From contig JBMORT010000006.1 of assembly GCA_049319825.1 (NCBI GenBank), positions 16,012 through 80,011 on the forward strand: a stretch of DNA of 64,000 nt. The letters are read 5' to 3'. The DNA comes from Patescibacteria group bacterium (GTDB lineage Bacteria; Patescibacteriota; Patescibacteriia; UBA11705; DATKZF01). The notes under the pieces were generated by a model that was given only the letters and a program-made list of their open reading frames with translations, was not told the origin of the DNA and searched no databases. Shown here in pieces: positions 12,134 to 34,140 of this stretch (its first letter is position 1; every line of letters begins with the position of its first letter). Both the position numbers and the translations under genes were made by a program.

Positions 12134-12298
12134 TTAATGAATCTACAAGATTAACCAGATCATTGTGCGAGATGATACAAGACATATTTAAGGATTTTGA
12201 TAATTTATACATCGTATCATCTGTTTCTTGTAAACCTTAGAATAATCAATTCCAATCTCGTAATATCTTGTATAGTAAATCTTGTAATCTTGTAAATT
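12134..12298. repeat. heptamer array: TACAAGA direct copies, then four inverted TCTTGTA copies (12226-12298)
   Basis: The same 7-mer that is embedded twice per 63-bp unit recurs here, in direct and then inverted orientation. Confidence 0.5.
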
Positions 12299-12386
12299 CA
12301 ATTTATGAAAAATTACTCCCGCAAAACAAATAAAAGACAAACCCGCTACCGCACTCCCAGCCGAGTAAAATCATACAGCTATCAAG

Positions 12387-12409
12387 ATCACCGTAAACGG
12401 TGATTTTTT
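12387..12409 (+). terminator. rho-independent terminator (atcaccg-taaa-cggtgat plus a T6 run)
   Basis: It probably ends the femAB-like transcript, after a roughly 400-nt repeat-rich 3' region. Confidence 0.5.
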
Positions 12410-12482
12410 GTCATTGATTTTGATATATTGTTTATTTTATCCCCATTTTTTTTTGACAAAAAATGATTATTCTTGTATTTCG

Positions 12483-12491
12483 TGGTATAAT
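12483..12491 (+). promoter_or_regulatory. extended -10 promoter candidate (TGgTATAAT)
   Basis: It lies 115 nt upstream of the ATG at 12606 in an AT-rich region. Confidence 0.25.
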
Positions 12492-12605
12492 TTTATTATC
12501 AAGAAAATCTTTGTGGATAATTTTTTTATATATCAATTAAGTGAGGAAATGCTGCTAGGTCCAACTATCGAGTGATATTTTTGTTTATAAAACCGACTTT
12601 GGATT

Positions 12606-13544: not shown

Positions 13545-13895
13545 TGGGGGAGGATGTTATTTGGAAATTTGAAAATAGAAATTTGAAACGGAGGAAACTG
13601 AAAGATGAAATGAGAAGCTGAAGATTAGAAATTTGGTAATGGAAGATAATCGTCTGCGAAAATTTAATAAAATTAAATGCTATAAATTTCGATGTTATGG
13701 ATATGCTGATAGATGAGAAAATCGTATCTATCCGCGTGTTCGTAACCAATTTGTTCTTTGTTAAAATAAACAGCTAATTTATTCATAAATTAAAGGTCGA
13801 AGCTGTCAAACAAAATTCGGTTTCGAAACCGACTGGTCAGTCCCCGCTTGTCGTGGACTGATAAGTTAGAGAATTAAAAATTATTAATTAAAACT

Positions 13896-14975
13896 ATGTA
13901 CAGAAAAAGTATAATAATGTTGATTGTGGCATTGATTTTCAGCATGTCATATGTTGTTGTTTCTCCGACTGTAGCCAATGCTTCACACGGCGTGACAATG
14001 TATGCTGATCTCGTCGCCGACGGCGGCACCAATAACCCGTCTACCGTCACCACTCGACCGGAAATAGCCGCCAGCGCCACGGATGAAGTGTTCTTTGGTT
14101 ATGTAGCCGAGGATGAATCAGCCACCAATGAAACTGTGGAATTGACATTCCCGACCGGCTGGACAATCGCCACCAATTGCGCGACTCCGACCACCGATGC
14201 TGATGGCGATACCACCGCTGATGGCGCCGGCGTTGTCGCTGGTAACGTGTATACATACACTTTCACCACTTTGACGACAGCCGCTTCCACCACCGGTCTT
14301 GAATTCTGCGTCGTGGTTACCGCTCCGGCAACCGCAACTAATGCGCCAGTCTATTTGGACAGCATGGCGACCGGTGAAGCTGAATTTGGCGCCACCCTGC
14401 TTTACATTGAGGATGCCAATGACGTCAATGTCACCGCGTCCGTGGAAATCACTTTGGTCTTCGAAATTAGAGAAGGCGATGACACTGGCCTGATCAATTA
14501 CTGCTCTCTGGGCACATTGACCGGCTCCAGCGTAGCTACCTGCGATTATCGGTTGCACGTTGAAACCACCGCCAGCTCCGGTTATAACATCAGATTTAAA
14601 ACCGACGGTGATTTGAGAAAATCCGGCTCCGGCGATGTCGCCGATCCGGAGAACATCGACCGCATCACCGACGGCCTTGGTACTATCACCACCGCCAGCG
14701 CTGAGTCGTATGGCGTGGCGGTAACCGGCGGCAACTGCACCTATAATTCTGCCGCGGGCACTGAGGCGGGCATCTATACTACTGACGACTCTCCGTTGCC
14801 GGCGTTCGCGACAGGTGAAACCGCGCTATTTTCTTGCGGCGGTCCGAATATCCCGACTTATGCTGGTGATACCACCAACACGGTATTGATGGAGCATCGC
14901 GCCAAATCTGATGATGGTACCGGTTCCGGCACTTATCAGCAGATTGTCACCTACTACGTTATCGCTAATTTTTAA
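13896..14975 (+). CDS. secreted protein, surface-locus paralogue B (359 aa), C-terminus ...VTYYVIANF
   Basis: Signal peptide present, Thr/Ala-rich. The C-terminal domain (GYNIRFK...SYGVAVTGG...YYVIANF) is conserved with paralogue A. Confidence 0.85.
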   Translation: MYRKSIIMLIVALIFSMSYVVVSPTVANASHGVTMYADLVADGGTNNPSTVTTRPEIAASATDEVFFGYVAEDESATNETVELTFPTGWTIATNCATPTTDADGDTTADGAGVVAGNVYTYTFTTLTTAASTTGLEFCVVVTAPATATNAPVYLDSMATGEAEFGATLLYIEDANDVNVTASVEITLVFEIREGDDTGLINYCSLGTLTGSSVATCDYRLHVETTASSGYNIRFKTDGDLRKSGSGDVADPENIDRITDGLGTITTASAESYGVAVTGGNCTYNSAAGTEAGIYTTDDSPLPAFATGETALFSCGGPNIPTYAGDTTNTVLMEHRAKSDDGTGSGTYQQIVTYYVIANF

Positions 14976-14985
14976 AGTTAGCTTT

Positions 14986-15020
14986 GGTCCCGAATCCATT
15001 CGGGGCCAGCCGGTAATTTT
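14986..15020 (+). terminator. terminator-like hairpin (ggtcccgaa...ttcggggcc) with a weak T tract
   Basis: Hairpin followed by ...taatttt. Confidence 0.3.
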
Positions 15021-15111
15021 AAAGATTAAAGATGAATATTGAATATAAAAATGAAGGATTAGACTAACAATTACATATTTGGAGGGAGATTATTATTAAT
15101 AAAAAATTGTT

Positions 15112-16062
15112 ATGAAAACATTGAAAGTATTTTTGGTAATACTTTTATCGGTAATGTTTATGTCGCCCGGTTTGGGCCAGGCGCTGACCGTCATACCGCC
15201 GGTGCTGGACAGCATTGATGCTGAACCCGGAAAAACCTATCAGGGATCTTATGAGTTGTTTAATGAAACGGATGTAGCGCAAACCTATTATTTTAAGGCT
15301 CACAATTTCGTGGCCCGAGGCGAAGAGGGGGAATCGGATTTGCTCACGGATGAGGATCAACAAATCGGCTTAGCTTCATGGGTTAAATTAGACGAACCGC
15401 AGCTCGTATTGGTCGGGGGAGATAGAAAAAAAGTCAATTTTAAAATAGATGTTCCGGCCGACGCTGAGCCGGGAGGCCATTACGCGGCGATTTTCGCCAC
15501 CACCCAGCCGCCGTCAGAAGACGTTGGTTTGGGTGAAAATACCGGAGTGCTCTTACTGGTGACCGTCCCCGGCGACATTCGAGAGAACGCGGAGCTGGTT
15601 GAATTTTCGTTGGCCAGCGGAAAAAAGGTTTATAACCGGCCGCCGGTCGAGTTTTTAATCAGAATAAAAAATAATGGAAATGTTCATTTCAAGCCGTTAG
15701 GCGATATCAGCATCAGCGGCTGGGCCGGGGAAAAGGTTAAAGTTGATGCCAATCCCAAGCGGGGAAACGTCCTGCCAAAGAGCATCCGGGCACTTCATCC
15801 CGTATGGGCCGGTCCGGCTGAGCGCGGCGGATTCATGCAGGAATTGAAGAATGAATGGCATAATTTCGCCTTCGGCCGATATAACGCACACCTGGAAATG
15901 GAATGGGGCTCTAATAATGAAAAGTTCATCGGCAATGTGGCGTTTTGGGTTTTCCCGTGGCGGGTGATGTTGGTCGGGTTGATTATTTTGGTTTTATTGA
16001 TTTTATTGATTAGAGGATACAATAAAGCGATTATTAAGAAAGCGCAAAAGCAAAATAAATAG
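15112..16062 (+). CDS. cell-surface protein with signal peptide and C-terminal TM anchor plus basic tail (DUF916/DUF3324-like by pattern)
   Basis: Signal peptide, then LTVIPPVLDSIDAEPGKTYQGSYELFNETDVAQTYYFKAHNF (Ig-like beta-rich). C-terminal FWVFPWRVMLVGLIILVLLILLIRGYNKAIIKKAQKQNK forms a TM segment with a basic tail. Confidence 0.8.
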   Translation: MKTLKVFLVILLSVMFMSPGLGQALTVIPPVLDSIDAEPGKTYQGSYELFNETDVAQTYYFKAHNFVARGEEGESDLLTDEDQQIGLASWVKLDEPQLVLVGGDRKKVNFKIDVPADAEPGGHYAAIFATTQPPSEDVGLGENTGVLLLVTVPGDIRENAELVEFSLASGKKVYNRPPVEFLIRIKNNGNVHFKPLGDISISGWAGEKVKVDANPKRGNVLPKSIRALHPVWAGPAERGGFMQELKNEWHNFAFGRYNAHLEMEWGSNNEKFIGNVAFWVFPWRVMLVGLIILVLLILLIRGYNKAIIKKAQKQNK

Positions 16063-16075
16063 TTGATTGGTTATG

Positions 16076-16101
16076 GCTGACCGCCAGGGGTGGCGGTCAG
16101 C
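16076..16101 (+). promoter_or_regulatory. perfect 11-bp stem-loop (gctgaccgcca-gggg-tggcggtcagc) between the anchor gene and the giant gene
   Basis: Followed by an A-rich rather than T-rich tract, so it is not a canonical terminator. Possible attenuator or RNA-processing site. Confidence 0.35.
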
Positions 16102-16132
16102 AATAAAAAATTAATTATTAGGAGAATCTAGC

Positions 16133-19100
16133 TTGAAGAGTAGGCGGATTTCAAAACATTTGATGAATTCCCGAAATTCAAATTTCCACAAAACAAAGAA
16201 GACAAGGAACCGAAAGCTTGTTGTGTTTTTAATACTGGCAATGATTTTTAACTTGTCTTATTTTAATATTTCGTCAAAGCCGGCCGAGGCCGCGGCCAGC
16301 CAGTTCATCAATTATCAGGGCAAGCTGCTTGATACCAGCGGAATTGAGGTTGATAACGGTCAGTATCATGTTAGATTTAAAATGTACAATGCCGGAACCG
16401 GCGGCTCTCTGCTGTGGTCTGAAAGCTGGGATAACACCACTACTACGGCAACGGTCGATGCGGGATTATTCACTTTAAAATTGGGAGAAGTTAATCCTTT
16501 TCCGGCGACCTTGGATTTCCAAACAGAAAGCGAATACTGGTTGAGCGTGGAAATCGGCGGCTCCGGAGCGACGCCGACTTGGGATGGAGAGATGACGCCG
16601 AGAAAGGAAATTACCGCGGTGGCCTACGCGATGAACGCCGATAAACTTGACGGCAAGAGCGAGGAAGAGTTTGCCGATTTGAGCGAAGACGAAACGATCA
16701 CCGGGCAATACACGCATGACGTGGATGTATTTGACGGCGCGGCGTTAACGACAATTATCAACGCTTCAGACGATAACAGCGTGGACACTTTTTCTTCTTT
16801 GCAAGCCGACGCGGTGCAAAATTCCAATGACGGAGATAATTTATACGGCATATACGTCACGAATTTGCAGGGAACAGCCTCCACCGGCAATGAATACGCG
16901 ATATATCAAGCCGGCACCGGCTGGGATTACGGGTTGTATGTGGAAGATCAGGCGTATTTGGGACAAAATTTGCGCTTTAGCAGCAATTTCGATGTAAAGA
17001 ATACTATTATTGCCAGTGTGAATATAATGGATGTGCAGTCCATTGGAACGAACTCAATGGCTTTCCGAGTAATACCGGGCACAGCTCCCGCTTATTCGGC
17101 GCTGGGAGAAACGCAAGCTTCATTTTTCGAATTTCATCGAAATTCCAGCGGTACGGACAGAATGCTGCTGACTGCGCCGACCAATGCCACCAATGGCTAT
17201 CAATTTGTATCCTACGCCGCGCTTCCGGCGACTCCGGGGCCTTTCTCCTTCGGGTTTACCACCAGTTTGGCCGCGCCGCCGACTAAAGTCATGAATATTT
17301 TCAACACTGGGTCGGTTGGCATTAATACTTTTGGGCCGGATGCCAAGCTGGATGTGTTGGCCACATCTGGTGAGCAATTACGGCTGACATACACGGATGG
17401 TTCGGTTTATACCGGCTTCACCGTCAATTCGGACGGAGATTTGATTGTCGATGCCACCGGCAGTGATATTCGGCTCGCGACCGGAGATAATTTATGGGTC
17501 GCTTCATCGGCTGACATTGTGATTGGCAATACTTATCTAGGTGAATCTACCGCTCAGATCGATAGCGGCGCGTATAATGTGGGAGTGTATAACGGCAATT
17601 TAACATACTCGACCAATACGAATGTTCAGCAGGTGCTTGAAGATTTGGATACGGCGATTGGTTCCGCCGGCAGCAAATGGACGGATGCGGGAAGTTACAC
17701 TTATTTAACGGCTACGACCGATAATTTAGTAGTGGGTTCAAACGCGACGGCTGATGCTGAGTTATTTATGGACGTTGCTGATAAACGGTTACACATCGGC
17801 AGCGGATATATTGATTTCGATTTTACAGGTTCCGGCAACACGGCTGTCGGAGATGATTCTTTATATTCCATTACTAATGGTACCCATAATTCATCTATTG
17901 GTTATCAAGCCATGTACTATTTGACATCTGGCTATGACAATACGGCACTGGGATATCAGGCATTAAGAATAGACAGTTCCGGAACTGGAGGACAATCTTT
18001 TGGCAACACAGCCATTGGTAGTTTAGCTTTATCCAGTATTAATACATCCGCGGCTGTGTACAATACCGCTATCGGCGTTTCATCACTCCAGAATAATACG
18101 ACAGGTTTGGCAAATACTGCTATCGGTGCGTTAGCACTCGATTCAAATGTCATTGGTGCATCCAATGTCGCTTTAGGTTATTCAACACTTCAGGCGAATG
18201 TCAGCGGAGATTATAACGTAGCTTTAGGTGCAGAGGCACTAGACTCATTGACCTCTGCAGATGCTAATATTGCCATCGGTTACAAGGCTATGGATTCAAC
18301 AACGACTGGTCAGTATAACGTGGCATTAGGCCATCAATCTCTGCGAGCTAATATTAGCGCCGACTATTCTACAGCACTGGGCTATCAGGCGCTCTACAGC
18401 AATACGGCGTCGAATATCACAGCCGTGGGCGCGCAAGCCATGTACTCAAACGGCACGGGAACAGAAAATGTGGCGATGGGTTATCAATCACTATATTCAA
18501 ACGACTCAGGCGATCAGCACACAGCAATCGGCTATCAATCATTGTACTCATTATCGGCGAATGTGGATGATAATACAGCTGTTGGATACAGAGCAATGTA
18601 TTCGAATTTAGCTGGAGGTCAGAGCACAGCTATCGGTTCGCAGGCACTTTATAACGCGTTGGCGCCGGGCTACAGCACGGCAGTGGGCTACCAAGCTTTA
18701 TACGCGACCACGACCGGAGATTACAATATCGCCGTGGGAAACCAATCGATGGTAGCCAATACGACGGGCAGCGACAACGTCTCTATTGGAGTAAATGCGC
18801 TGGATTCAAACACTACGGGAAATTACAATATAGCGATCGGCCGCCAATCGCTGCAGGCAAACATTAGTGCCGACTATTCTACAGCACTGGGCTATCAGGC
18901 GCTCTACAGCAATACGGCGTCGAATATCACAGCCGTGGGCGCGCAAGCCATGTACTCAAACGGCACGGGAACAGAAAATGTGGCGATGGGTTATCAATCA
19001 CTATATTCAAACGACTCAGGCGATCAGCACACAGCAATCGGCTATCAATCATTGTACTCATTATCGGCGAATGTGGATGATAATACAGCTGTTGGATACA

Positions 19101-22100
19101 GAGCAATGTATTCGAATTTAGCTGGAGGTCAGAGCACAGCTATCGGTTCGCAGGCACTTTATAACGCGTTGGCGCCGGGCTACAGCACGGCAGTGGGCTA
19201 CCAAGCTTTATACGCGACCACGACCGGAGATTACAATATCGCCGTGGGAAACCAATCGATGGTAGCCAATACGACGGGCAGCGACAACGTCTCTATTGGA
19301 GTAAATGCGCTGGATTCAAACACTACGGGAAATTACAATATAGCGATCGGCCGCCAATCGCTGCAGGCAAACATTAGTGCCGACTATTCTACAGCACTGG
19401 GCTATCAGGCGCTCTACAGCAATACGGCGTCGAATATCACAGCCGTGGGCGCGCAAGCTTTATACTCTAATACATCTGGTACAGGAAACGCCGCTTTAGG
19501 GTACCAGTCTCTATATTCCAATACTTCGGGAAATAACAATTCCGCCTTTGGTTATCAGTCATTGTTCAGTCATGCCTCTGGTAATGATGGTAATACAGCA
19601 ATGGGATATCGTTCAATGTATTCAATGACCGCGGGAGCGTTAAATACATCAATCGGAACAGAGGCTTTATACAGCGCTTTAAGCACGTCGGGAAATGTGG
19701 CAATCGGTTATCGCGCTGGTTATTTTGAAACCGGAAACAATCGTTTATTTATTGATAACAATTCACGATCTGACGAAGCTACCGGAAGGGTAAGATCTTT
19801 AATTTATGGCGAATTTGCCTCTGCAACCGCCGATCAATTATTAAGAATAAACGGATTGACTCAAATTCAAGGTCATTTGATACCATACCAAGATAATTTT
19901 TATAATATCGGATCCGCAGATTACCGTTGGAATAATTTATATGTGGATGATGCTTATGTGTTAAAAGGAGCGACGAATATCAATTTAGAGTCCAGCGGCA
20001 CCCCAACAACATCTGGAGCATATGCTATTGGAGCCAATGATGAGTTTACATACTCAGATTCGACTAATGTTCAGGATGTTCTAGATGATTTGGATGCAGC
20101 ATTGGCTTCCGCCGGCAGCAAATGGACGGATGCGGGAGACTTCACTCACTTAACCTCAACAATCGATGACGTGGTGATCGGCGCGTCAACCACTGAAGAC
20201 GCGGTGTTCTGGTTTGATGTAACGGATAACGCGGAAAAGTTTTCAATTGACGCGTCATCGGACGCGCATACCACCGCCGCGCTTGATATTGATTTTCGCG
20301 GCGATGCCAATAATTTAAAAGTGGTTGATATATATGCCGGATCAGCCAGCGGTCTATCTGCCAATTCATTTCTGTTCGGACAATCAATTACTTTAGGATA
20401 TAACGCCGGTGACGCGGCGGGCACTTATCGAATCGCCAACAATGTTGACGTGAACGGCACTAACGCTACTTCAGATATAATTGGATACGCTTTTTTCGAT
20501 AATACTCAAACCGGACAAGATGGGTTATCCGGTGTCGGGTCGGCGACCGGAGCTTATTCGCTGATTTCTCATTCCGGCAGCGGCAGTTTGACCGGTTTTC
20601 AAAATTATTTGTGGCACACGGGCAGTGGCAGCGTTACCGGATTCGGCGGATCGACATCTAGTTCCGGCAGCGGCACAGTTTATGCCGCCAACCCGCAGGT
20701 TTATGGTTTGTCCGGATTTTCCGGTTCGCTTTACGGCTATCGAACATCCATGACCAACAGCAGCGGTTCTACACAGAACATGCTGGGTTTTGATATAAAT
20801 GTGACCAATAATGCCGGCGCTTCGGCCGACAGTTTATGGGGAGGCAAAATAACGGTAAAGGCTTCGGGGACGGAAGATACCGCCGCTTACGGATTGCAGG
20901 TGGTTTCCGATACTGATTTAATTGATAGTTTGATTAATTTGGCGGTCGTCAACGGCGGCTCGGCCGGTTATGGTTTTGATATGAATGGCGCGACAATCGC
21001 GACCGCGGATATCAGATTGTCCAACGGATCAACAATAGATAATCTGACATCAACGGTCGTTGCTTTCAGTGACGGTATCAGAATCGGAAACACTGCGGAC
21101 ACCACGGCCGGAAACATCCGCTGGTCCGGCGCGGATTTTGAGGGCTATAACGGCGCGGGTTGGCAGAGCCTGACATCCGGCGGCGGATCACTCTGGACAG
21201 ATGCCGGCACATACACTTACCTGACGGCCACGCAGGATGATTTGCTCGTCGGTTCAAGTAATAATGCCAGCCGGCCGCTTTATTTCGATGTCAGCAACAT
21301 GTCGCTGGAAATCGGATCGGGCGACACGTTAAACGCCCGGCTTTATATGTATTCGCAGGATGGGGATTCCGGATTGATCGAATATGCCGCTTCGGATCGA
21401 TTTGAATTTTACGATCAGATTTGGGTTCAGGGTTATATTGATTTCGATAACGCTTCCGCCGATACGGCTGTCGGTTACGTGGCTCTGAATTCCAATACCA
21501 CCGGCACCGATAATTCGGCTTTCGGTTACCAAGCGCTCGTCAGCAATACTACGGGTTCATATAATACCGGCATCGGCGCATCCTCATTGATCAGCAACAA
21601 CACCGGATTGGCTAATACGGCCTTGGGAGCTTCTTCATTGTTCTCCAATCAAGGAGGGTCGAATAATACCGCCATCGGCGTCAGCGCCTTATATTCGAAT
21701 GTTTCCGGTGCCAGCAATGTGGCGATCGGTTCCGGTGCTCTAGGTGCGAGCGTCGGAGAAGATTATAATGTGGCCATCGGCGCGGCCGCGCTGGCTAACA
21801 GTTCCGGCGGTACCGCCAACTCGGTAATCGGTTTTCAGAGTTTAACCAATAATATAATTGGAGATTATAATTCCGCCTTGGGTTATCGGTCTCTTTATAA
21901 TGCCACCGGCGATTATAATGTGGCTATCGGTTCTGACTCATTATTTTCGAACATTAACGGAGACAGCAATATCGCCATCGGCTCATACGCCGGATACCAT
22001 GAAACGGGCAGCAATACTTTATATATAGACTCTATTTATCGCTCTAATGAGGCTGATGGCCAGGTAAAGTCGCTAATCTATGGAGAATTCGCCTCAGCCA

Positions 22101-25100
22101 CAGCCGATCAATTGTTCCGAATTAACGGCAATATGGAGGTTCAGGGAAACCTGTCGCCATTGGCCGATGACGTTTATAATCTGGGCTCAGCCGATTCCAG
22201 ATGGGCGAATTTATATCTGGGCCCCGCGTCTTTATACATCGGTCAGAATGGTAATGATTATTCCATTTCTTATAACACCGGATCCAGCGCGTTGGTATTC
22301 AATGAGTCGGGAGCGGATCGGGACATCAGGATTGAAGGCGACACCGACACCAATCTGTTTTTCGTGAATGCCGGCAGCGACCGAATTGGCATTGGATTAA
22401 ATAATCCGGCGGAAAAATTGGAAGTCAGCGGCGCGATCAAGCTGGGAACAACTTCAAATACCAATGCCGGCACCATCCGCTGGACCGGCGCGGATTTTGA
22501 GGGCTATGACGGCGCGGGCTGGCAGAGCCTGACATCCGGCGGCGGATCCTTATGGACGGATGTTGGAGACTTCACTCACTTAACCTCGACAATCGACGAC
22601 GTCGTGATCGGATCAGACGCGACCGAAGACGCAGTATTTTGGTTTGATGTTACCGATGGGGCCGAAAAATTGACCATAGACGCTTCAAGCGATGCTCATT
22701 CATCCGCTGTCGCGTTCGACGTTAATTTTCGAGGGAGCGCGAACAATTTGAAAGCCGTGGATATTTACGCCGGTTCTTCAGCCGGGTTGACCGGCGCGTA
22801 TAATAATTTAATGGGACAAAACATCACCGTCGGTATAAATGCCGCGGATCAGGCCGGCACCATGCGCATCGGCAGCAACGTCAATATCGATGGCACCAAT
22901 GCCACCGCTGATGTTGTCGGCTATACTTTTTGGGATTTCGTTGACACCGGTCAAGGCGGCTTTACTGGCGTTGGATCGGCCACTGGGTTATATCCAATAA
23001 TGAATCATACCGGTAGCGGCAGTTTGTACGGAGTGAATAATTACTTAAGACATTCGGGATCGGGCAGTCTTTACGTTTCCGCCGCGCAAGCGCTGGGAGC
23101 CTCGGGATTCACCGGTTCCTTATACGGAAATTCATTGACCATGGTCAATCAAGCCGGGAGCAACGCGCAAAACATAATGGGGTTTGATCTTAATGTCACC
23201 AATTCGTCTTCGGCCACCGCAGACAGCGTTATCGGCGGCAAGATAACGGTCGACGCCTCCGGCGCGGAAGATATCGCGGCTTACGGATTGCAGGTAGTTT
23301 CCAAAAACGCGCTGGTAGACAGTTTTATCTATTTGGCGAGCCAAACCGGCGGCTCCGCCGGCTACGGCTTGGATATGAACGGCGCGACAATCGCCACCGC
23401 GGATATCAGATTGTCCGGCGGATCGACAATTGATAATTCGACGTCAACGATAATCGCTTTCAGCGACGGCATCAGAATCGGAAACACTGCGGACACCACG
23501 GCCGGAAACATCCGCTGGTCCGGCGCGGATTTTGAGGGCTATGACGGCGCGGGCTGGCAGAGCCTGACATCCGGCGGCGGATCCTTATGGACGGATGCCG
23601 GAGCGTTTACATATTTAACCGCCACCACCGATGACATGGTGGTCGGCTCGGCCGCCACTTCGGACGCGGAGCTGTGGTTTAATGTCAGCGGCAAGAGATT
23701 GACTATCGGATCGGGGTATGTTGATTTCGATTATGGAACCGGCACGGACAACGTGGGCATCGGCAGCAATACTTTAACGGCGATCACTACAGGAAGTTAC
23801 AATATCGGCATCGGCACCGGCGCCTTGCAGGCGGCGACGGATAATAATGGCCTGACCGCTGTCGGTTATCAGGCGTTATATACGAATTCATCGATCGGAA
23901 CAAATAATACCGCTGTTGGTTACAGAGCATTATATCTTAATAACGGCGGTGATTTTAACACCGCGCTTGGATACGAAGCGCTTGATGCCAATGTGAGCGG
24001 GTCAAATAGTGTGGCGATCGGGTACCGCGCGCTTACCAATAGCACCGGAAGCGGAAATGTGGCGGTCGGTTCCGAGGCGCTGTTATCCGCCGTCGGCTCA
24101 ACCAATATCGTCGCGATTGGATATGGCGCTGTTCAGGATCTCACATCGAACGGAGAAGTTGTCGGCGTAGGATATAATTCGCTGGCAAACGCGACTGGCG
24201 CCGGAAACACGGCAATTGGATACATCGCCGGACAAGGAAACGCCGCGTCGGCTACAGGGACGGCCAACACTGCTGTGGGCAGAGGCACATTATCGTCTTT
24301 TTCAACCGGAAATAATAATGTGGCTGTTGGGTATAACGCGTTGGATCAATTGAGTACCGGTACTTATAATATTGCCCTCGGCACCAATGCTTTGGGCGCG
24401 GCGGTGACCGGAAGCAATAACATTGCTATCGGCAACAGCTCATCACTCTTAAACACGTCCGGGATTGATAATATCGCTTTAGGATTTTTCGCGTTAAGCA
24501 CTAATACCGCAGGCCAGGGGAATGTCGGAATCGGACGCAATTCTTTAAGAAACGGCACTGGCAGTTATAATGTTGCGCTGGGCTATGAAGCTGGTTATCG
24601 GGAAACTGGCAGCAATACATTATATATAGATAATCAGGACAGAGGCAATGAAGCCTCTGGCGAGGCCGAATCCTTGATTTATGGCGTGTTTGATAATGTC
24701 GTGTCCAGTCAATTATTCAGGATAAATGCTCCAACGCAAGTTCAGGGAAACTTAATTCCATATCATGATAATGTTTATAATTTAGGCAGCCCAAGCAACC
24801 GCTGGAACAATATTTACACCGACAGAATGATTATGAGTTCCAATGCCGATCTCTATTTTGACGGCACCGATATTTTCTTCAGGAATTTTGAAACCAATGG
24901 AGACATCACCTTGGACGCGACCTCAACCGGCACCGGCAATGTCATTGTCGTCGCCGATAACTGGGCGGTCAACAGCAGCGGCAACATGTCCATTAACGGA
25001 GACATGACCGTGACCGGCGGAGATTTGAATCTTTCATCGGATATCCGGCTGCATGTCAGCGGCGATGATTTGCAGATTCAAAACGCTGCCACTGGCGGAG

Positions 25101-28100
25101 ATATATATTTGGATCCGACATACAACGGCTCCAGCGGATTCGTTTTTGTCAGCGGTGATTTGATGCCGGTTTACGATGATACTTTTGACATTGGATCCCC
25201 GGATCTGCGCTGGCAGGACGGATATTTTTCCGGGCAGGTTTATGTCGGCAATACATTAGAAATTTCAGATGATGGATTTTACGATACTGATAGCGCCATC
25301 GGTTTTTTCCCCGATGGACAGCTGACCAGAGGGTTGGCAATTACCGACGATGTGACTGTGGGTTTGGCTATTACCACCAATGCCAGCACAAATTTGACCA
25401 TTTTGCCAAACAACGCCGATTTGGACGTGCGTCCGACAGCTAATAGCACTGACTTTTTTCAAGTGCAAAATGCCGCCGGCACAGCGATATTTAACGTTGA
25501 CAGCTCCAATTCACGAGTCGGCATCAATACGGCCGCGCCGGATTACGCGCTGGATGTCGCCGGATCTGTCGGCATGGACGATTATATATATCATAACGGC
25601 GACAGCAATACGTATTTGGGATTTTCCGCGGACGATACGCTGGTGGTTTATTCTTATGGGGTGAAGTTGATGGAATATTACAGTTCCTCGGCTTTATCCA
25701 ATTCCGTCACCGGTAACCCCGATAACAATCGGGTGAACTTCGTTTGGGACGGGGACACCAACGACAGTCTATTCCGCATCGCCGCGCTTCAGGAGCAAAT
25801 CGGCATTGGCGCCACCGGCGGCGCGGCCAGCATGGACGGCAAGCTGGTCGTTTATCAGACAGCGACCGCTGATATATTTAATTTGTATGATGGGTCGGAT
25901 AATGTTTTCACGGTGACTGACGGCGGCAATGTCGGCATCAGGCAAACCTCGCCAGCCAGTGATTTTGAAATATTGTCAGACAACAGTACCACGGGCGCGA
26001 CAATGCAGCTCAGACGAAACGATGGCGCCGTGCTTGATGGAGATGATTTGGGATATTTGTATTTTTCAGGATTGGATAGCGGCGACACACTCAACGCCAC
26101 TGGCGCGTACATAAAAGCTGAGGCCACAGATACCTGGGGCGACGCATCCGATCCGGATGACGCGCCGACAGCTATGCATTTTTATACCCAAAACGACGGC
26201 ACTGGCAATAACATGACTTTCCCGATGATGACGATATATGAAGATATCGGCGTTGGCTTATTGCTTAACGGCAATTTGCCGCAGGCGACTTTTCACATGG
26301 AAACCAATAAAAACGGCTATGGCATCCGGATGGAAGAGTATCTCGGCGGCGGCGCCGGCGATTACTGGGAATGGGGAGTCAACGCCGCCGGTGATTTGAA
26401 TTGGAACGACAACGGCACGACCAGAATTTCATATAAAAACGGTGGCGATGTGGGCATCGGCACCAGCGGGCCCGGCGCTAAATTGGAGATTTATGATAAT
26501 GACGATGTCGGCGTGGCATTGGAAGTCAATAGCGACGAGTCGGATACGGCCGCGCAAAATGTTTTTCAAATCAGAACTGATTATAATGCCGCCGATGATT
26601 TGGTGTTTGTGGTCGATGCCGATGGCACGGTCCGAAACGATAATGGCACCTACACTACCGGCGCCGACTACGCGGAATATTTTTGGACAGCTGACATGAC
26701 TTTGGCCACGGCCGACGTGGTTTGCATCGATCCGACGCACAATAACGCGGTTTCCAAATGTTCCGGCGCCAATGACGCCAATATTTTGGGCGTTGTTTCC
26801 ACTAACCCGGCCTTCATCGGCAACGCGGGATCAAACTGGATATTTGACGGTGATCCGAATTATGTGATCATCGGTTTGGTCGGTCAAGTGCCGATTCGGG
26901 TCAGCAATGAAAACGGCCCGATCAGCGTTGGCGATTATTTAACGTCTTCGTCCACTCCGGGCGTGGCCATGAAAGCCGACCCCGGCAGCCCGACAGTCGG
27001 TATCGCCATCGAGCCGCTGACGGCGGGCGCCGGCATCATCAAAGTCGTGATTTCCAGAAATAACGGCAGCAATACTTTCTGGGCTGCCGGCAACAATGGC
27101 ATTTATCAAAACAATTTGCCAACGATTATCGGTCCGGATGCCGCTTTCAGCTATGTGCAGAGCGCGGCCGCCGGAGATCTGCAGATCGCCGATGATTTTG
27201 AAGCCAGAGGCGACGGCTATGTCGGCGCGAATATGATTGTCGGCGCTTCGACATCGGCCGCGGAGACATTGGCTAACGCCGGGTTTGCGATGAACGGCAA
27301 TGATTTGTTTGTGGCCGGCGATGCGGGCATTGAAGGCAATATTTATACTGACGGCTCGTTTATCGCCGGACCGGGTACCACCACTTACAGCGACGGCTCG
27401 ATTACTTCGACAAATACGATGACCATCACTTCAAATACCGGAGACCTGACGCTCGACTCTGGTTCCGGCACATTGAAGCTCGGCGCCGGCACGAATGCAA
27501 TATCAAATTCTGATGCGGGCGCAGATTTAACATTAAATTCGAACGGAGACATCAATTTCTTCAATTCAAATAATTCAATTGATTCCGGCGGCAATTTGAA
27601 TCTGGCCGGCGATATTAATATCGGCGGATCGCTAGTCGTTAATGATATGAGGCTGGGAGATATCGACATCGCTAACGGCGCAATAGCCAGCACGGGCGAT
27701 TTGACCATCGCTTCTGGCGCCAGCCAGGATCTGACGCTTGATTCCGATTCGGGAACGCTCAAGCTCGGCGCGGGCACCAATGAAATCTCCAATACTGACG
27801 CCAGCGCGGATCTGACCATCAAATCCGAAGGCAACATCAATTTCTTCGACGCCAATACATTCATTGATAAAGACGGGAACCTGACTCTGGCCGGCCAGCT
27901 GCAGGCGGCCATGGATGTTATCGCTCAGCAGAACGTGATTATAAAAAATCAGCTTGAGGTGGATCAAATCGCCGCTGATGATCGGCAAGAAATCACCGTC
28001 ATGGACGAGATGGTTTTTGAGCAGGGATTAAAGGTCTCGGCCAAAACGGACACGACAGTCGCCGGCACGCAAGTCAACGTCGCCGGATTCGGCAATGCCA

Positions 28101-31100
28101 ACAACCAGACATCGCGCGCGGCCGCGGTTTACAACGGCAAGCTTTATGTCGGCACATACAACACTTCAAACGGAGCCGGGCTTTGGGCATACGACGGTTC
28201 GAACTGGGCATCGGTTGATACTAACGGCTTTGGCAATGCCAACAATACTTCAATTAATTCAATGATCGCCTATGGCGGCGGTTTAATCGTGGGCACGAGA
28301 AATACGAACAAGGCCGAGGTTTGGATATGTGACGATACGGATACTTGCTCGCAGCAAAATTTAGGAGCGACTTTTGACGGTAATAACGACGCGGCGCAGG
28401 CAATGACCGTTTATAACGGCAAATTATTCATGGGCACGGACAATGCCATTGATAACAGTGAAATTTGGCAGTTTATCGACACCAATAATTGGTTAATGGC
28501 CGATAACACCAACGGGTTTTTAAGCACGTATCAAAATGACGCCTTGACGGCGCTGCTGAGCATTGGCTCACAGCTTAATAATGAAGGATTATTGGCCGGT
28601 ACCAAAAATAACAGCGGCGCGCAGATTTGGCGAAGAGGATCAAATTTCACCTGGACCAGAATCGATAATAGTTCATTCGGCGATATCAATAACGTGGAGG
28701 TGATGGCCATGACCGCATATAACGGTCAGGTGTTCGCCGCCACCAAAAATTCCAGCGGTTGTCGAGTTTATAAACAGCGAGAAGAAAGCACCAGCTGGGA
28801 CGCGGCCGGCAGCGCGGGATTGATAAATTCGGCCTATACCGAATGTCGTTCCATTGTCGTCTATAATGGCGATTTGTACGCATTATTAGGCAAGACTTCG
28901 GGCGCGGGCATGGCCGTGGCCAAATATAACGCTATGGCCAACAGCTGGTCCGCGGTTTATACCAATGCCAGCGACCTGGCCGGTTATTGGTTGCAAACAT
29001 TCGGCGAAAAGTTGTATTTTGCCGCTGAAAGCTCCGGTCAAGTGAAAGTATTTGAATATAATGAAAATAAGAATCTGTCCCAGTCGATTGAATTCATGGC
29101 CAATGGCGAAACGGCCGCCTTATACTTTAAATCCGACGCGGCCGGCGACGCCAATATCGGCCAGCAATCGGCGGGTGCGTTTATCATGACCCATACGTTG
29201 ATCACCAATTCCGGCGCTTATGACTTGGCCGAAGATTGGCCGACGGAAGACCCGGGGATCGAAGCCGGCGACGTGGTGGCCGTTGACCCGTTCAATAAAG
29301 CCCACGTGATCAAGGGTTCGAAAGATAACAGCGCGGTGGGCATAATTTCCACTGAACCGGGCTATATTTTGTCACAAAAAGCCGATGGTCGAATTTACCG
29401 TCCGGTGGCTTTGGCCGGCCGGGTACCGGTAAAAATAAGCAATGAAAACGGGCCGGTTAAGGCGGGAGATTTATTGACACCGGCGTCAATACCGGGTTAT
29501 GCGATGAAATTGATCGGATCCGGGCCGGTGATCGGCAAAGCTTTGGAAGATTACGATTTCAGCGCCGCCGGCGATTCGTACGAGGTATCCCAAGAATTGC
29601 AATCCGCGGCTCAGCAATTTGACGAAATCGCGGAAAATACGATGAAGCTGGTTGAAAATACGGAAGAAGTGGTCAGCTCTTTAAATCAGACCAAGCAAGA
29701 ATTATTGAGCATTGAAAATAATCAGGAATTAACAGCTCAAGAAAAAGACCAGTTGATCAATGAACTATCCGGGGAAATAGAAAATGTGGCGGTCGCTTTG
29801 GAAATAGATGATCAGGCCATTACCGACATCAGCGACAGCGCCGATATCGTTGATGTACAAAATCAAATAATTGAAAAGGCCCAGGAATTGGAGAATCAGG
29901 CGATGCAGGCGGAAATCGCCAAGAGCCAACTGATTCAGCCCATGGCCAAAGATCCGGGCAAGGGCAGAATTATGGCATTGGTGATGAACAGTTATTATTT
30001 TGAATCAACCGACGGCCAGACAGCCGGTCAATTGGCCGCTGGTTCGGCGGCCATCGATCCGCAATCTGTCGCGAGCGTTGACTTCGCTGAAATATTAACT
30101 GTTGCCGGCGATGGAGCGATTGAATTGGCCTCGAGCGTCAGAATATACGGCGATTTATATGTTAATGGCAATTTGGTGGTGACCGGCGATATCGATCTGG
30201 CGGGTAATTTAAAAATCGGAGATAAAATATATATATCCAATCAAATGTCCGGCACGGCGCTGATCGCCTCCGCGGACGCGACTGCGGTCGAAGTGAAGTT
30301 TGATACTCCATACGAAGAAATACCGAGAATCACCGTCACGCCGGAACTGCTGGGATTAACGGCCGATGAAAATATATTTGATGTTTGGGATGGTCGGTAC
30401 ATCATTACCGATAAATCGACTGAGGGATTTACCATTAATATCGCCAACGCGCTTTGCGTGTCCGCCGGCGCGTCAGCTGATGTTGTCGGTTGTCAGCATC
30501 ATTTAAGGTTTGATTGGGTGGCGTTTGGAGTTGTTTCCGATGAAGAATCGCTGGCGCAGATGGTCGAGATGACCGCCAAACCGGCCAGTACCGATAAAGA
30601 GCCGCCATCGATTGACCCTGCGGTCAAAGTAATCATTCGAAACGGCGCCAATTTAGACACCACCGATATCGGCAACAGCTTGATTGGCCTGGGATACGCT
30701 GTTTACAAAGGCGCCGACACGATCAGTTATTACTCCACCTCCAGAATATTGGTGCTGAATTCGCAGCTGTCGCCGTCCGTGCTCAACGAAATTAGGTTCT
30801 TAATCGGCGGTGAGATAGAGTACGCCTCAGCAGCCGGTGAATATGGCGATAGCGACGTGGTAATTTTCTTGGGAGAGGATTTAACCAAAGATGTGTTCAC
30901 CTACGATCAGCAGAAATTATTGGATTCAAATATAACCGACGAAATCCCACCGCTGCCCGCACCGATCGCCGAAACGGCGTCGAGCGACGACACGTTGTCC
31001 GAACAAGCGAATAACGATCAACCCATTCTCAGTGCGGCTGACGGGGCGGTTGAAGATGAAGAAACGCCGATCAATGTCGACGGTCAAATTTCGGATTCGA

Positions 31101-31159
31101 CAGTATCAGCCGAGTCGCAGCCCGAACCGGAAATAGTTGCTGTCCCCGTCGGTGAATAA
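16133..31159 (+). CDS. giant surface protein (5008 aa): N-terminal signal anchor, tail-fibre-like N-domain, three blocks of YadA-head-like beta-roll repeats, beta-propeller-like repeats, coiled coil
   Basis: Uninterrupted 15-kb ORF with a TTG start and AGGAGA 7 nt upstream. Repeats of the type NTAIGyxALxSNTTGxxN. A module ...SLIYGEF...RINGxxQVQGNL.P..D.YNLGS...RW.NLY occurs three times. YNGKLYVGT / NGFGNANN units are propeller-like. Confidence 0.9.
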   Translation: MKSRRISKHLMNSRNSNFHKTKKTRNRKLVVFLILAMIFNLSYFNISSKPAEAAASQFINYQGKLLDTSGIEVDNGQYHVRFKMYNAGTGGSLLWSESWDNTTTTATVDAGLFTLKLGEVNPFPATLDFQTESEYWLSVEIGGSGATPTWDGEMTPRKEITAVAYAMNADKLDGKSEEEFADLSEDETITGQYTHDVDVFDGAALTTIINASDDNSVDTFSSLQADAVQNSNDGDNLYGIYVTNLQGTASTGNEYAIYQAGTGWDYGLYVEDQAYLGQNLRFSSNFDVKNTIIASVNIMDVQSIGTNSMAFRVIPGTAPAYSALGETQASFFEFHRNSSGTDRMLLTAPTNATNGYQFVSYAALPATPGPFSFGFTTSLAAPPTKVMNIFNTGSVGINTFGPDAKLDVLATSGEQLRLTYTDGSVYTGFTVNSDGDLIVDATGSDIRLATGDNLWVASSADIVIGNTYLGESTAQIDSGAYNVGVYNGNLTYSTNTNVQQVLEDLDTAIGSAGSKWTDAGSYTYLTATTDNLVVGSNATADAELFMDVADKRLHIGSGYIDFDFTGSGNTAVGDDSLYSITNGTHNSSIGYQAMYYLTSGYDNTALGYQALRIDSSGTGGQSFGNTAIGSLALSSINTSAAVYNTAIGVSSLQNNTTGLANTAIGALALDSNVIGASNVALGYSTLQANVSGDYNVALGAEALDSLTSADANIAIGYKAMDSTTTGQYNVALGHQSLRANISADYSTALGYQALYSNTASNITAVGAQAMYSNGTGTENVAMGYQSLYSNDSGDQHTAIGYQSLYSLSANVDDNTAVGYRAMYSNLAGGQSTAIGSQALYNALAPGYSTAVGYQALYATTTGDYNIAVGNQSMVANTTGSDNVSIGVNALDSNTTGNYNIAIGRQSLQANISADYSTALGYQALYSNTASNITAVGAQAMYSNGTGTENVAMGYQSLYSNDSGDQHTAIGYQSLYSLSANVDDNTAVGYRAMYSNLAGGQSTAIGSQALYNALAPGYSTAVGYQALYATTTGDYNIAVGNQSMVANTTGSDNVSIGVNALDSNTTGNYNIAIGRQSLQANISADYSTALGYQALYSNTASNITAVGAQALYSNTSGTGNAALGYQSLYSNTSGNNNSAFGYQSLFSHASGNDGNTAMGYRSMYSMTAGALNTSIGTEALYSALSTSGNVAIGYRAGYFETGNNRLFIDNNSRSDEATGRVRSLIYGEFASATADQLLRINGLTQIQGHLIPYQDNFYNIGSADYRWNNLYVDDAYVLKGATNINLESSGTPTTSGAYAIGANDEFTYSDSTNVQDVLDDLDAALASAGSKWTDAGDFTHLTSTIDDVVIGASTTEDAVFWFDVTDNAEKFSIDASSDAHTTAALDIDFRGDANNLKVVDIYAGSASGLSANSFLFGQSITLGYNAGDAAGTYRIANNVDVNGTNATSDIIGYAFFDNTQTGQDGLSGVGSATGAYSLISHSGSGSLTGFQNYLWHTGSGSVTGFGGSTSSSGSGTVYAANPQVYGLSGFSGSLYGYRTSMTNSSGSTQNMLGFDINVTNNAGASADSLWGGKITVKASGTEDTAAYGLQVVSDTDLIDSLINLAVVNGGSAGYGFDMNGATIATADIRLSNGSTIDNLTSTVVAFSDGIRIGNTADTTAGNIRWSGADFEGYNGAGWQSLTSGGGSLWTDAGTYTYLTATQDDLLVGSSNNASRPLYFDVSNMSLEIGSGDTLNARLYMYSQDGDSGLIEYAASDRFEFYDQIWVQGYIDFDNASADTAVGYVALNSNTTGTDNSAFGYQALVSNTTGSYNTGIGASSLISNNTGLANTALGASSLFSNQGGSNNTAIGVSALYSNVSGASNVAIGSGALGASVGEDYNVAIGAAALANSSGGTANSVIGFQSLTNNIIGDYNSALGYRSLYNATGDYNVAIGSDSLFSNINGDSNIAIGSYAGYHETGSNTLYIDSIYRSNEADGQVKSLIYGEFASATADQLFRINGNMEVQGNLSPLADDVYNLGSADSRWANLYLGPASLYIGQNGNDYSISYNTGSSALVFNESGADRDIRIEGDTDTNLFFVNAGSDRIGIGLNNPAEKLEVSGAIKLGTTSNTNAGTIRWTGADFEGYDGAGWQSLTSGGGSLWTDVGDFTHLTSTIDDVVIGSDATEDAVFWFDVTDGAEKLTIDASSDAHSSAVAFDVNFRGSANNLKAVDIYAGSSAGLTGAYNNLMGQNITVGINAADQAGTMRIGSNVNIDGTNATADVVGYTFWDFVDTGQGGFTGVGSATGLYPIMNHTGSGSLYGVNNYLRHSGSGSLYVSAAQALGASGFTGSLYGNSLTMVNQAGSNAQNIMGFDLNVTNSSSATADSVIGGKITVDASGAEDIAAYGLQVVSKNALVDSFIYLASQTGGSAGYGLDMNGATIATADIRLSGGSTIDNSTSTIIAFSDGIRIGNTADTTAGNIRWSGADFEGYDGAGWQSLTSGGGSLWTDAGAFTYLTATTDDMVVGSAATSDAELWFNVSGKRLTIGSGYVDFDYGTGTDNVGIGSNTLTAITTGSYNIGIGTGALQAATDNNGLTAVGYQALYTNSSIGTNNTAVGYRALYLNNGGDFNTALGYEALDANVSGSNSVAIGYRALTNSTGSGNVAVGSEALLSAVGSTNIVAIGYGAVQDLTSNGEVVGVGYNSLANATGAGNTAIGYIAGQGNAASATGTANTAVGRGTLSSFSTGNNNVAVGYNALDQLSTGTYNIALGTNALGAAVTGSNNIAIGNSSSLLNTSGIDNIALGFFALSTNTAGQGNVGIGRNSLRNGTGSYNVALGYEAGYRETGSNTLYIDNQDRGNEASGEAESLIYGVFDNVVSSQLFRINAPTQVQGNLIPYHDNVYNLGSPSNRWNNIYTDRMIMSSNADLYFDGTDIFFRNFETNGDITLDATSTGTGNVIVVADNWAVNSSGNMSINGDMTVTGGDLNLSSDIRLHVSGDDLQIQNAATGGDIYLDPTYNGSSGFVFVSGDLMPVYDDTFDIGSPDLRWQDGYFSGQVYVGNTLEISDDGFYDTDSAIGFFPDGQLTRGLAITDDVTVGLAITTNASTNLTILPNNADLDVRPTANSTDFFQVQNAAGTAIFNVDSSNSRVGINTAAPDYALDVAGSVGMDDYIYHNGDSNTYLGFSADDTLVVYSYGVKLMEYYSSSALSNSVTGNPDNNRVNFVWDGDTNDSLFRIAALQEQIGIGATGGAASMDGKLVVYQTATADIFNLYDGSDNVFTVTDGGNVGIRQTSPASDFEILSDNSTTGATMQLRRNDGAVLDGDDLGYLYFSGLDSGDTLNATGAYIKAEATDTWGDASDPDDAPTAMHFYTQNDGTGNNMTFPMMTIYEDIGVGLLLNGNLPQATFHMETNKNGYGIRMEEYLGGGAGDYWEWGVNAAGDLNWNDNGTTRISYKNGGDVGIGTSGPGAKLEIYDNDDVGVALEVNSDESDTAAQNVFQIRTDYNAADDLVFVVDADGTVRNDNGTYTTGADYAEYFWTADMTLATADVVCIDPTHNNAVSKCSGANDANILGVVSTNPAFIGNAGSNWIFDGDPNYVIIGLVGQVPIRVSNENGPISVGDYLTSSSTPGVAMKADPGSPTVGIAIEPLTAGAGIIKVVISRNNGSNTFWAAGNNGIYQNNLPTIIGPDAAFSYVQSAAAGDLQIADDFEARGDGYVGANMIVGASTSAAETLANAGFAMNGNDLFVAGDAGIEGNIYTDGSFIAGPGTTTYSDGSITSTNTMTITSNTGDLTLDSGSGTLKLGAGTNAISNSDAGADLTLNSNGDINFFNSNNSIDSGGNLNLAGDINIGGSLVVNDMRLGDIDIANGAIASTGDLTIASGASQDLTLDSDSGTLKLGAGTNEISNTDASADLTIKSEGNINFFDANTFIDKDGNLTLAGQLQAAMDVIAQQNVIIKNQLEVDQIAADDRQEITVMDEMVFEQGLKVSAKTDTTVAGTQVNVAGFGNANNQTSRAAAVYNGKLYVGTYNTSNGAGLWAYDGSNWASVDTNGFGNANNTSINSMIAYGGGLIVGTRNTNKAEVWICDDTDTCSQQNLGATFDGNNDAAQAMTVYNGKLFMGTDNAIDNSEIWQFIDTNNWLMADNTNGFLSTYQNDALTALLSIGSQLNNEGLLAGTKNNSGAQIWRRGSNFTWTRIDNSSFGDINNVEVMAMTAYNGQVFAATKNSSGCRVYKQREESTSWDAAGSAGLINSAYTECRSIVVYNGDLYALLGKTSGAGMAVAKYNAMANSWSAVYTNASDLAGYWLQTFGEKLYFAAESSGQVKVFEYNENKNLSQSIEFMANGETAALYFKSDAAGDANIGQQSAGAFIMTHTLITNSGAYDLAEDWPTEDPGIEAGDVVAVDPFNKAHVIKGSKDNSAVGIISTEPGYILSQKADGRIYRPVALAGRVPVKISNENGPVKAGDLLTPASIPGYAMKLIGSGPVIGKALEDYDFSAAGDSYEVSQELQSAAQQFDEIAENTMKLVENTEEVVSSLNQTKQELLSIENNQELTAQEKDQLINELSGEIENVAVALEIDDQAITDISDSADIVDVQNQIIEKAQELENQAMQAEIAKSQLIQPMAKDPGKGRIMALVMNSYYFESTDGQTAGQLAAGSAAIDPQSVASVDFAEILTVAGDGAIELASSVRIYGDLYVNGNLVVTGDIDLAGNLKIGDKIYISNQMSGTALIASADATAVEVKFDTPYEEIPRITVTPELLGLTADENIFDVWDGRYIITDKSTEGFTINIANALCVSAGASADVVGCQHHLRFDWVAFGVVSDEESLAQMVEMTAKPASTDKEPPSIDPAVKVIIRNGANLDTTDIGNSLIGLGYAVYKGADTISYYSTSRILVLNSQLSPSVLNEIRFLIGGEIEYASAAGEYGDSDVVIFLGEDLTKDVFTYDQQKLLDSNITDEIPPLPAPIAETASSDDTLSEQANNDQPILSAADGAVEDEETPINVDGQISDSTVSAESQPEPEIVAVPVGE
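18353..19450. repeat. 510-bp tandem duplication inside the giant gene (2 full copies plus a partial, about 99.8% identical)
   Basis: Copies start at 18353, 18863 and 19373 with a single mismatch (agcgcc/agtgcc). They encode identical 170-aa beta-roll segments. Confidence 0.9.
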
Positions 31160-34130: not shown

Positions 34131-34140
34131 GGTGGGATTT

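Follow-up and report, generated by a model that had tools for sequence, protein, structure and literature searches.

In streptococci, the Alp proteins (alpha C, Rib and R28) carry identical in-frame tandem repeats of 237-246 bp, the number of which sets protein size (PMC7098570). In BadA, recombination between repeats alters fibre length among isolates, a change that only long reads reveal (PMC8859334). The locus considered here is a giant gene in a window of 64,000 nucleotides (the whole stretch of DNA that was analysed) from a Patescibacteria group bacterium. It resembles alpha C and R28 in that its head-to-tail units, 510 bp long in this case, are identical in DNA, in frame, and affect length only, in a protein that is at the surface in streptococci and putatively so here. 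However, the Alp proteins have the Rib domain and an LPXTG anchor, while the giant protein belongs to another fold and family, and a motif scan of it found no LPxTG. Many copies with documented variation between strains and within hosts are characteristic of the Alp proteins; the present locus has two, in a single metagenome-assembled genome (MAG).

The likeness to BadA and other trimeric autotransporter adhesins is that of a giant, fibrous, adhesin-like protein made of repeated modules, and the core of the repeat, N-[ST]-A-[IV]-G, resembles the YadA-head motif. Unlike in BadA, the period is 17 rather than 14 residues, YadA_anchor has no Pfam match in the whole giant protein or in pieces of it, and YadA_head (PF05658) stays below its cut-off (13.5 bits against 25) and is seen in array 3 only, with none in array 1, so the label of trimeric autotransporter was rejected. 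Some homologues are labelled “trimeric autotransporter adhesin” by JGI. The phylum Patescibacteria is generally described as being without an outer membrane. RTX proteins share with this one short tandem repeats rich in Gly and Asn, with predicted stacked short beta-strands, but their nonapeptide GGxGxDxUx is absent here, where the period is 17 residues. The original prediction had called the duplicated segment a beta-roll, and in the RTX sense this name has to be given up: a search for GG.G.D returned 0 matches, HemolysinCabind (PF00353) has no match at E<=1, the weak YadA_head signal lies in another array, and the repeat is of phage type.

By its sequence, the repeat of array 1 is a phage-type fibre repeat of 17 residues, found in phage, giant-virus and bacterial “tail fiber domain-containing” proteins, those of Bacteroidota among them. 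Its consensus was derived from 61 sequences, and a protein search places 7,525 proteins in the same 17-residue repeat family at E<=1e-10, with 35-47% identity. Matches to PHROG tail-spike and virion-protein families (phrog_6002, phrog_23837, and phrog_4636) have E values of 1e-88 to 1e-113, and a structure-model search of BFVD gives 104 matches at E<=1e-3, to Peptidase_S74 fibre proteins of phages and giant viruses. The AlphaFold monomer model is of moderate confidence (pLDDT 74.9). In the PDB, no solved structure matches the repeat; single-sequence and profile searches reach only the C-terminal chaperone of the homologues. Some members of the tail-fibre family also have higher-order tandem duplications. 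Among the matches listed, all homologues are 558-990 aa long with one array and, in most, an S74 domain, whereas the protein here has 5,008 aa, three arrays, and five modules. Although the homologues do carry Peptidase_S74 (PF13884), Pfam finds no match to it in the giant protein, which has only a Peptidase_G2 IMC match in its long C-terminal part (35.2 bits against a cut-off of 25, approximately 26615-26833). Its neighbourhood is also unlike theirs, being chromosomal and of housekeeping character, and no mobile-element, prophage, recombinase, or retroelement genes were found within the window.

The product of 5,008 aa from the TTG start, which has AGGAG 8 nt ahead of it, is likely the true protein; other starts are ATG at 16163 and ATG at 16241. 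The N-terminus runs from basic to hydrophobic residues and then to AEA-AAS, resembling a signal peptide when judged by eye, and the upstream neighbour has similarity to WxLIP_PGBD at a sub-threshold level only. The protein may be secreted or surface-located, and it may form a trimeric fibre. Five “WTDxG” modules are accompanied in it by three arrays built of 17-residue repeats, and every array is closed by a neck of the form “LxIDN ... SLIYGxF ... RWxNxY.” The opposite strand of the duplicated tract has no ORF that reaches 60 aa. A literature search on SRR32167788 and PF26696 found no paper. The features of the gene and of array 1 are collected in Table 1.

Table 1. Position and composition of the giant gene, its first repeat array, and the units within that array (numbering of the window)
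Feature	Position	Strand	Description
Giant gene	16133..31159	+	5,008 codons; TTG start; open throughout
Array 1	17837..19744	+	38 tandem repeats of 16-18 residues each; residues 569-1204; consensus NTAxGxxALxxNTTGxx
Old unit A	18291..18800	+	first 68 bp 68% identical to B and C; positions 69-510 identical to B
Perfectly periodic tract	18359..19458	+	1,100 bp with a period of 510 bp (2.16 copies); copies differ by 0 mismatches
80-bp patch common to A, B, and C	18359..18438, 18869-18948, 19379-19458	+	inferred crossover zone
Unit B, chimeric (new)	18801..19310	+	positions 1-148 identical to C; positions 69-510 identical to A
Old unit C (last)	19311..19744	+	first 148 bp identical to B; runs into neck
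Neck closing array 1	19742..19942	+	RLFIDN ... SLIYGEF ... RWNNLY; same element ends arrays 2 and 3

When the sequence is compared with itself at an offset of 510, positions 18359-18948 equal 18869-19458 with 0 mismatches in 590 bp, and the periodic tract that results is the sole perfect long repeat within the window. In a megablast self-comparison, 18329-18948 and 18839-19458 are 98.7% identical, while the remaining internal repeats of the giant gene have identities of 70-89% each. Tandem Repeats Finder missed the 510-bp repeat because its maximum period is 500. A chance origin of the match can be excluded, since identity at other 51-bp multiples inside the array, used as a control, is only 0.31-0.45. 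The ORF is uninterrupted throughout, and the unit, in which 18359 falls on a first codon position, corresponds to 170 codons. Units beginning at 18353 and differing by one transition had been predicted, and this difference is confirmed as C/T at 18358 versus 18868; the third copy, said to diverge after about 80 bp, does so where the match ends at 19459, 86 bp past 19373. The further claim of a very recent, in-frame duplication of 170 aa within the giant gene is upheld by the same perfect identity, codon count, and open frame. To judge from the identity of the copies, the duplication must be very recent. The differences checked at the left boundary (18352 and 18358) are synonymous (aat/aac and agc/agt), which fits truly old paralogous sequence abutting new identity.

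We consider it probable that a 510-bp unit in array 1 of this giant, putatively secreted, tail-fibre-like Patescibacteria protein was really duplicated in tandem, in frame and very recently. The 510-bp unit comprises ten repeats of the 17-residue type, with lengths in unit B of 17, 16, 17, 17, and 18 residues followed by five of 17, and the pattern 16-17-17-18 is common to units A, B, and C. An older 510-bp periodicity is kept in the flanks, at 68% identity upstream and approximately 60% downstream, where unit C after its position 148 continues for approximately 200 bp at about 60% identity to A and B before fading to background near the neck. This diverged periodicity, together with the common length pattern, indicates that the locus had been duplicated in this register before. 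The array would thus have started with A followed directly by C, 510-bp units that had already diverged. A crossover within the 80-bp stretch in which A and C are identical, either through misaligned homologous recombination of sister chromosomes or through slippage during replication, would then have given the product A-B-C, whose middle unit has the head of C and the tail of A. Such a chimera is the expected outcome of one unequal crossover or slippage, and either may have been the mechanism. The tract measures 2 x 510 bp plus 80 bp because A, B, and C all share the 80-bp patch without a difference. From one event alone, 2 x 510 bp and no more would be expected, and the 80 bp observed in addition speak against it; for A and C to have had a perfect patch of 80 bp amid approximately 60-68% identity, a conversion beforehand or another event is required.

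The same three units could also have arisen by concerted evolution at constant copy number, in which old A, B, and C were homogenised by two conversion tracts (A/B at positions 69-510 and B/C at positions 1-148). The two events that this takes equal the number in the crossover model with a pre-existing 80-bp patch, and the old 510-bp periodicity shows that units have long coexisted at the locus. However, the two tracts would have to be long (442 and 148 bp) and perfectly abutting or overlapping, between partners of about 60-68% identity. Identity in this range makes a poor substrate for homologous recombination. One crossover explains the chimera more simply, and homogenisation at constant copy number is accordingly very unlikely.

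The recent duplication depends on a copy number read from one MAG contig, which traverses the 510-bp loop twice. On both sides of the tract, an independent k=31 Logan assembly of SRR32167788 agrees with the window at 100% identity, but it fails to cross the repeats of the gene. It stops at 17691 and resumes at 23568, and the ends of its contigs coincide exactly with 31-mers that are repeated in the window. The true number of units might then be one (an arrangement U-R-x-R-D, with 590 bp) or more than two, or polishing might have made differing copies identical. Perfect identity extends over 590 bp, more than any k-mer in usual use; the genome was assembled from a metagenome, and the 80-bp remainder has the appearance of a loop with a shared node of 80 bp. 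Tandem repeats are moreover a documented cause of wrong repeat numbers, but in assemblies of short reads the error usually reported for identical repeats is collapse, which counts too few, rather than an extra traversal, which counts too many (PMC6868369), and a true count of one is for this reason the less likely form of assembly error. Other repeats, of 72-82 bp, are resolved in the same 365-kb contig, the locus has undergone an earlier duplication in this register, and higher-order repeats are frequent among family members. We therefore regard an assembly error as unlikely, though with a chance that has to be taken seriously.

Higher-order repeats in homologues include one of 303 bp in 4.0 copies at 95% identity (L006), and other family members have repeat offsets of 207 and 741 bp at approximately 90% identity. 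These repeats are diverged (89-95%) and so cannot be assembly artefacts. Giant homologues were reached through the upstream neighbour gene, since protein searches with the repeat region and with the N-terminus listed none of at least 1,000 aa; those same searches gave nothing above 47% identity across the region. Against GTDB species genomes, the N-terminal domain has matches of only 30-34%, and in JGI metagenomes neither a close relative by the N-terminal domain nor a match to an exact 32-mer of the unit was found. The closest relative found is a species whose neighbour gene is 75% identical. The syntenic orthologues have 2,037 aa, 3,764 aa, and at least 2,889 aa (the last ended by a contig end) compared with 5,008 aa here; their N- and C-termini are conserved while the centre is unrelated or rearranged. 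Given the homologues with higher-order repeats and the range of orthologue sizes with differing centres, gain of repeats is natural in this gene. Within the three orthologues, identity between internal repeats is 72-93% throughout, with no perfect pair. Beside these values the copy described here would be unusually young, which speaks against reading it as a real, very recent duplication.

The strongly different centre of the orthologous gene among relatives also bears on whether the locus undergoes programmed, fast-switching phase or antigenic variation, with repeat number selected for evasion or host switching. In a fibre that is probably exposed at the surface, long identical repeats offer recombination a good substrate, and length variation of an analogous kind is known in Alp/R28 proteins and BadA (PMC7098570, PMC8859334). 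However, there are two full copies only, the neighbourhood contains no recombinase, retroelement, or silent cassette, and the divergence of the orthologue repeats argues for rare events over continual homogenising turnover. Because the 510-bp unit is in frame, its gain or loss changes length only and cannot switch the gene on or off. Programmed variation is thus extremely improbable, and the phase variation raised in the original prediction fails in the on/off sense, as a unit of this length cannot shift the frame, while a change in protein length is its natural consequence. A simple-sequence contingency locus, with slipped-strand mispairing of units of 1-9 nt, was likewise rejected for a unit of 510 nt.

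If the duplication is real, the fibre shaft would have gained ten repeats, from the 28 that array 1 has without the duplicated unit to the present 38, with the frame and terminal domains unchanged. The gain would be approximately 5 nm, supposing a geometry in which one repeat is one beta-solenoid rung at about 0.48 nm. Further recombination between the identical 510-bp units may raise or lower the copy number over time and so produce length variants. One could go further and picture the central shaft of this conserved, syntenic gene as an organ of tunable length in an episymbiotic Patescibacteria cell. Cells with different fibre lengths would then coexist in the population, the architecture of the host-cell surface would select among these lengths, and the duplication would be a snapshot of ongoing expansion and contraction; this is doubtful and is offered as speculation.

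Copy number in repeat genes of this kind is not trustworthy from a MAG alone, and if the assembly has it right, the locus reveals no new mechanism but an ordinary in-frame duplication of known type. The locus, with sizes from 2,037 to 5,008 residues among relatives, would be a concrete and cheap target for the study of fibre-length variation within a population. If real, the duplication would be a time-stamped case of the growth of a giant fibre in host-dependent, ultra-small bacteria by unequal recombination of higher-order blocks.

A self-comparison of the window, shifted by 510 bp, matches 18359-18948 to 18869-19458 with no mismatch over 590 bp, and this match defines a periodic tract of 1,100 bp, or 2.16 copies, within a giant gene for a fibre-like protein. 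The near-perfect 510-bp tandem duplication of the original prediction is confirmed, as are its details: counted from 18353, the sole difference is a C/T transition (18358 versus 18868), and the match of the third copy, predicted to diverge after about 80 bp, ends at 19459, 86 bp past 19373. The unit is 170 codons long and the reading frame stays open, so that the in-frame duplication of 170 amino acids stands, and with 590 identical bp its interpretation as recent was right. No ORF of at least 60 aa was found on the strand opposite the tract. By Megablast of the window against itself, the tract is the only long repeat above 97% identity besides a 63-bp minisatellite, and the remaining internal repeats of the giant gene have 70-89% identity. 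Tandem Repeats Finder, which is limited to periods of up to 500, missed the repeat for that reason alone. Within the first repeat array (array 1), other multiples of 51 bp give an identity of 0.31-0.45, which excludes a chance origin of the 510-bp match.

Coordinates of the tract, the giant gene, its relatives and other features (window positions unless a locus is named)
Feature	Location	Detail
Giant gene	16133-31159 (+)	5,008 codons
Array 1	17837-19744	residues 569-1204; 38 tandem repeats of 16-18 residues
Periodic tract	18359-19458	period 510 bp
Unit A	18291-18800	
Unit B	18801-19310	
Unit C	19311 onward	
Peptidase_G2 IMC match	~26615-26833	residue ~3510; GADYAEYF
Second, similar motif	~29216	residue 4362; AYDLAEDW
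Cluster upstream of giant gene	12606-16062	three proteins without assigned function, ~311, 360-376 and 316-329 aa
Cluster downstream of giant gene	31215-31661	one protein, ~140 aa
Cluster in related Patescibacteria	L011 7895-17587; L013 5102-18434	
Orthologue comparison regions	16133-31159 vs L010 1750-10416, L011 10994-17107, L013 8565-18434	
63-bp tandem repeat	11959-12133	2.8 copies, 97%; 3' end of FemAB-family gene (10907-11998) and just beyond
36-bp perfect tandem repeat	43557-43630	2.1 copies; overlaps the palindrome
42-bp perfect palindrome	43540-43581	with the 36-bp repeat (43540-43630) within ORF 43163-43690, just upstream of divergent uvrA
ComEC, two overlapping ORFs	31702-34130	DUF4131 and Competence domains, then metallo-beta-lactamase domain
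Identical ComEC split	L011 17629-19984	
397-aa ORF	650-1843	no Pfam match; 208-aa ORF overlaps on opposite strand

For run SRR32167788, the Logan k=31 assembly has contigs that match window positions 12104-17691 and 23568-41506 at 100% identity. The contig ends at 17691 and 23568 and the start at 12104 coincide exactly with 31-mers repeated in the window, so this assembly agrees with the window and is uninformative on the 510-bp tract; Logan contig L001 begins exactly at the last repeated 31-mer of the 63-bp repeat. A wrong copy number in the window's own MAG contig, the assembly artefact allowed for in the original prediction, is possible but rather unlikely: this contig crosses the 510-bp loop twice, which assemblers do only given supporting pairs, depth or long reads, and short-read assemblies that err on identical repeats are usually reported to count too few (PMC6868369). 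The existence of at least two identical units is fairly probable.

On either side of the perfect tract an older 510-bp periodicity persists. Over its first 68 bp, unit A has 68% identity to B and C, B and C have about 60% identity over about 200 bp beyond 18948/19458, and all three units have a 16-17-17-18 pattern of repeat lengths. B is identical to C over unit positions 1-148 and to A over 69-510, and an 80-bp patch (69-148) is identical across all three. Judged from sequence, this mixed make-up of B is the product expected if A and C underwent a single unequal crossover or slippage within the patch, an event that would have converted A-C into A-B-C and expanded array 1 from 28 to 38 repeats; pure gene conversion as the source of the identical units is highly improbable. 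A single event gives 2 x 510 bp and the tract holds 80 bp more; this excess requires A and C to have been identical there already, amid sequence of 60-68% identity. Its possible sources are an earlier short gene conversion, heteroduplex extension as the crossover took place, repeated expansion and contraction, or the assembler's loop traversal.

The 510-bp unit comprises exactly ten repeats (16, 17, 17, 18 and six of 17 residues) with the consensus NTAxGxxALxxNTTGxx from 61 family members. The segment had been called a beta-roll, which does not hold in the RTX sense, since the giant protein has neither a GGxGxD motif nor a HemolysinCabind match; it is instead a phage-type fibre repeat. YadA_head reaches 13.5 bits (cut-off 25) only in an array other than array 1, and YadA_anchor has no match in the giant protein. 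Array 1 matches PHROG "virion structural protein" and "tail spike protein" families (E 1e-88 to 1e-113), and 7,525 proteins match the repeat region at E<=1e-10. The best of these have 35-47% identity and 558-990 aa, most with a C-terminal Peptidase_S74 chaperone; the matches listed include none of at least 1,000 aa, nor the query's own giant product or its Logan fragments. Names include "tail fiber domain-containing protein" and, in JGI, "trimeric autotransporter adhesin." An AlphaFold model of residues 657-1222 (pLDDT 74.9) is solenoid-like, with a short strand about every 17 residues. Foldseek found no significant match among solved structures (best E 1.7); predicted viral proteins gave 104 at E<=1e-3, the top ones being Peptidase_S74/intramolecular-chaperone fibre proteins from phages and giant viruses. 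PDB sequence and profile searches matched the chaperone domain of the homologues, never the repeat.

The giant gene starts with TTG, 8 nt after AGGAG, and the N-terminus of its product appears signal-peptide-like by eye. The protein has five WTDxG-initiated modules (residues 516, 1331, 1688, 2141, and 2486), an End_tail_spike match, and three repeat arrays (about 38, 11, and 17 repeats) that all end in a common neck, LxIDN ... SLIYGxF ... RWxNxY. The Peptidase_G2 match (35 bits, cut-off 25) and the similar motif about 850 residues further on, with a YNGKLY-type repeat run between them, suggest that the polypeptide may be cut autoproteolytically, as in phage appendage proteins. The neighbours are housekeeping genes (IleRS, peptidase U32, RuvA, FemAB, ComEC, NDK, UvrABC, ClpP, S7), and the 64-kb window contains no prophage or mobile element. 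Related Patescibacteria keep the cluster around the giant gene, and its proteins may serve to anchor or assemble the fibre. The 316-aa upstream protein scores 14 bits, below the 27.3 cut-off, against the WxL-interacting-protein peptidoglycan-binding domain; some of its homologues are DUF916 in NCBI naming. ComEC is split in L011 as well, so the split is no sequencing error but a conserved feature, either of gene arrangement or as a frameshift site. Positions 1-2000 of the window have a GC content of 0.56, versus 0.40-0.52 elsewhere.

Repeat gain also occurs in relatives. Among 120 listed homologues scanned in 60-residue windows at >=85% identity, eight have tandem stretches, three of them near-perfect (P0002, P0104, P0114). 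At the DNA level, one locus (L006) has 4.0 copies of 303 bp at 95% identity, and L007 to L009 have copies offset by 207 and 741 bp with about 90% identity; with copies diverged in DNA, these duplications cannot be assembly artefacts. Syntenic orthologues, reached in three other assemblies through the 316-aa neighbour, have 2,037 aa (complete, with genes between peptidase U32 and NDK ordered as in the window), 3,764 aa, and, for one truncated where its contig ends, at least 2,889 aa, versus 5,008 aa. Conservation covers residues 14-280 (36-69% identity) and about 3400-4600 (59-67%), while the centres, including array 1, are largely unrelated, and L010, the closest relative found, has no counterpart of array 1. 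Internal repeats of the three orthologues have 72-93% identity, none perfect. Variable length and diverged higher-order repeats indicate a central shaft that lengthens and shortens in the course of evolution; its most recent gain would be the 510-bp duplication.

Phase variation, also proposed originally, is not upheld, since a unit that preserves the frame offers no on/off switching of the gene. The closest known cases include streptococcal Alp/R28 proteins, whose size depends on how many identical repeats they have (PMC7098570), and BadA of Bartonella, with domain arrays reshuffled between isolates, visible only by long reads (PMC8859334). This kind of event is already well known, and the tract adds one further example. 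With two identical 510-bp units to act on, homologous recombination could occur again, so that length variation, as originally suggested, is plausible. Gain or loss of this in-frame unit can alter only fibre length and repeat-borne epitopes. A beta-solenoid rung is about 0.48 nm; if one repeat is one rung, ten repeats would make the fibre about 5 nm longer.
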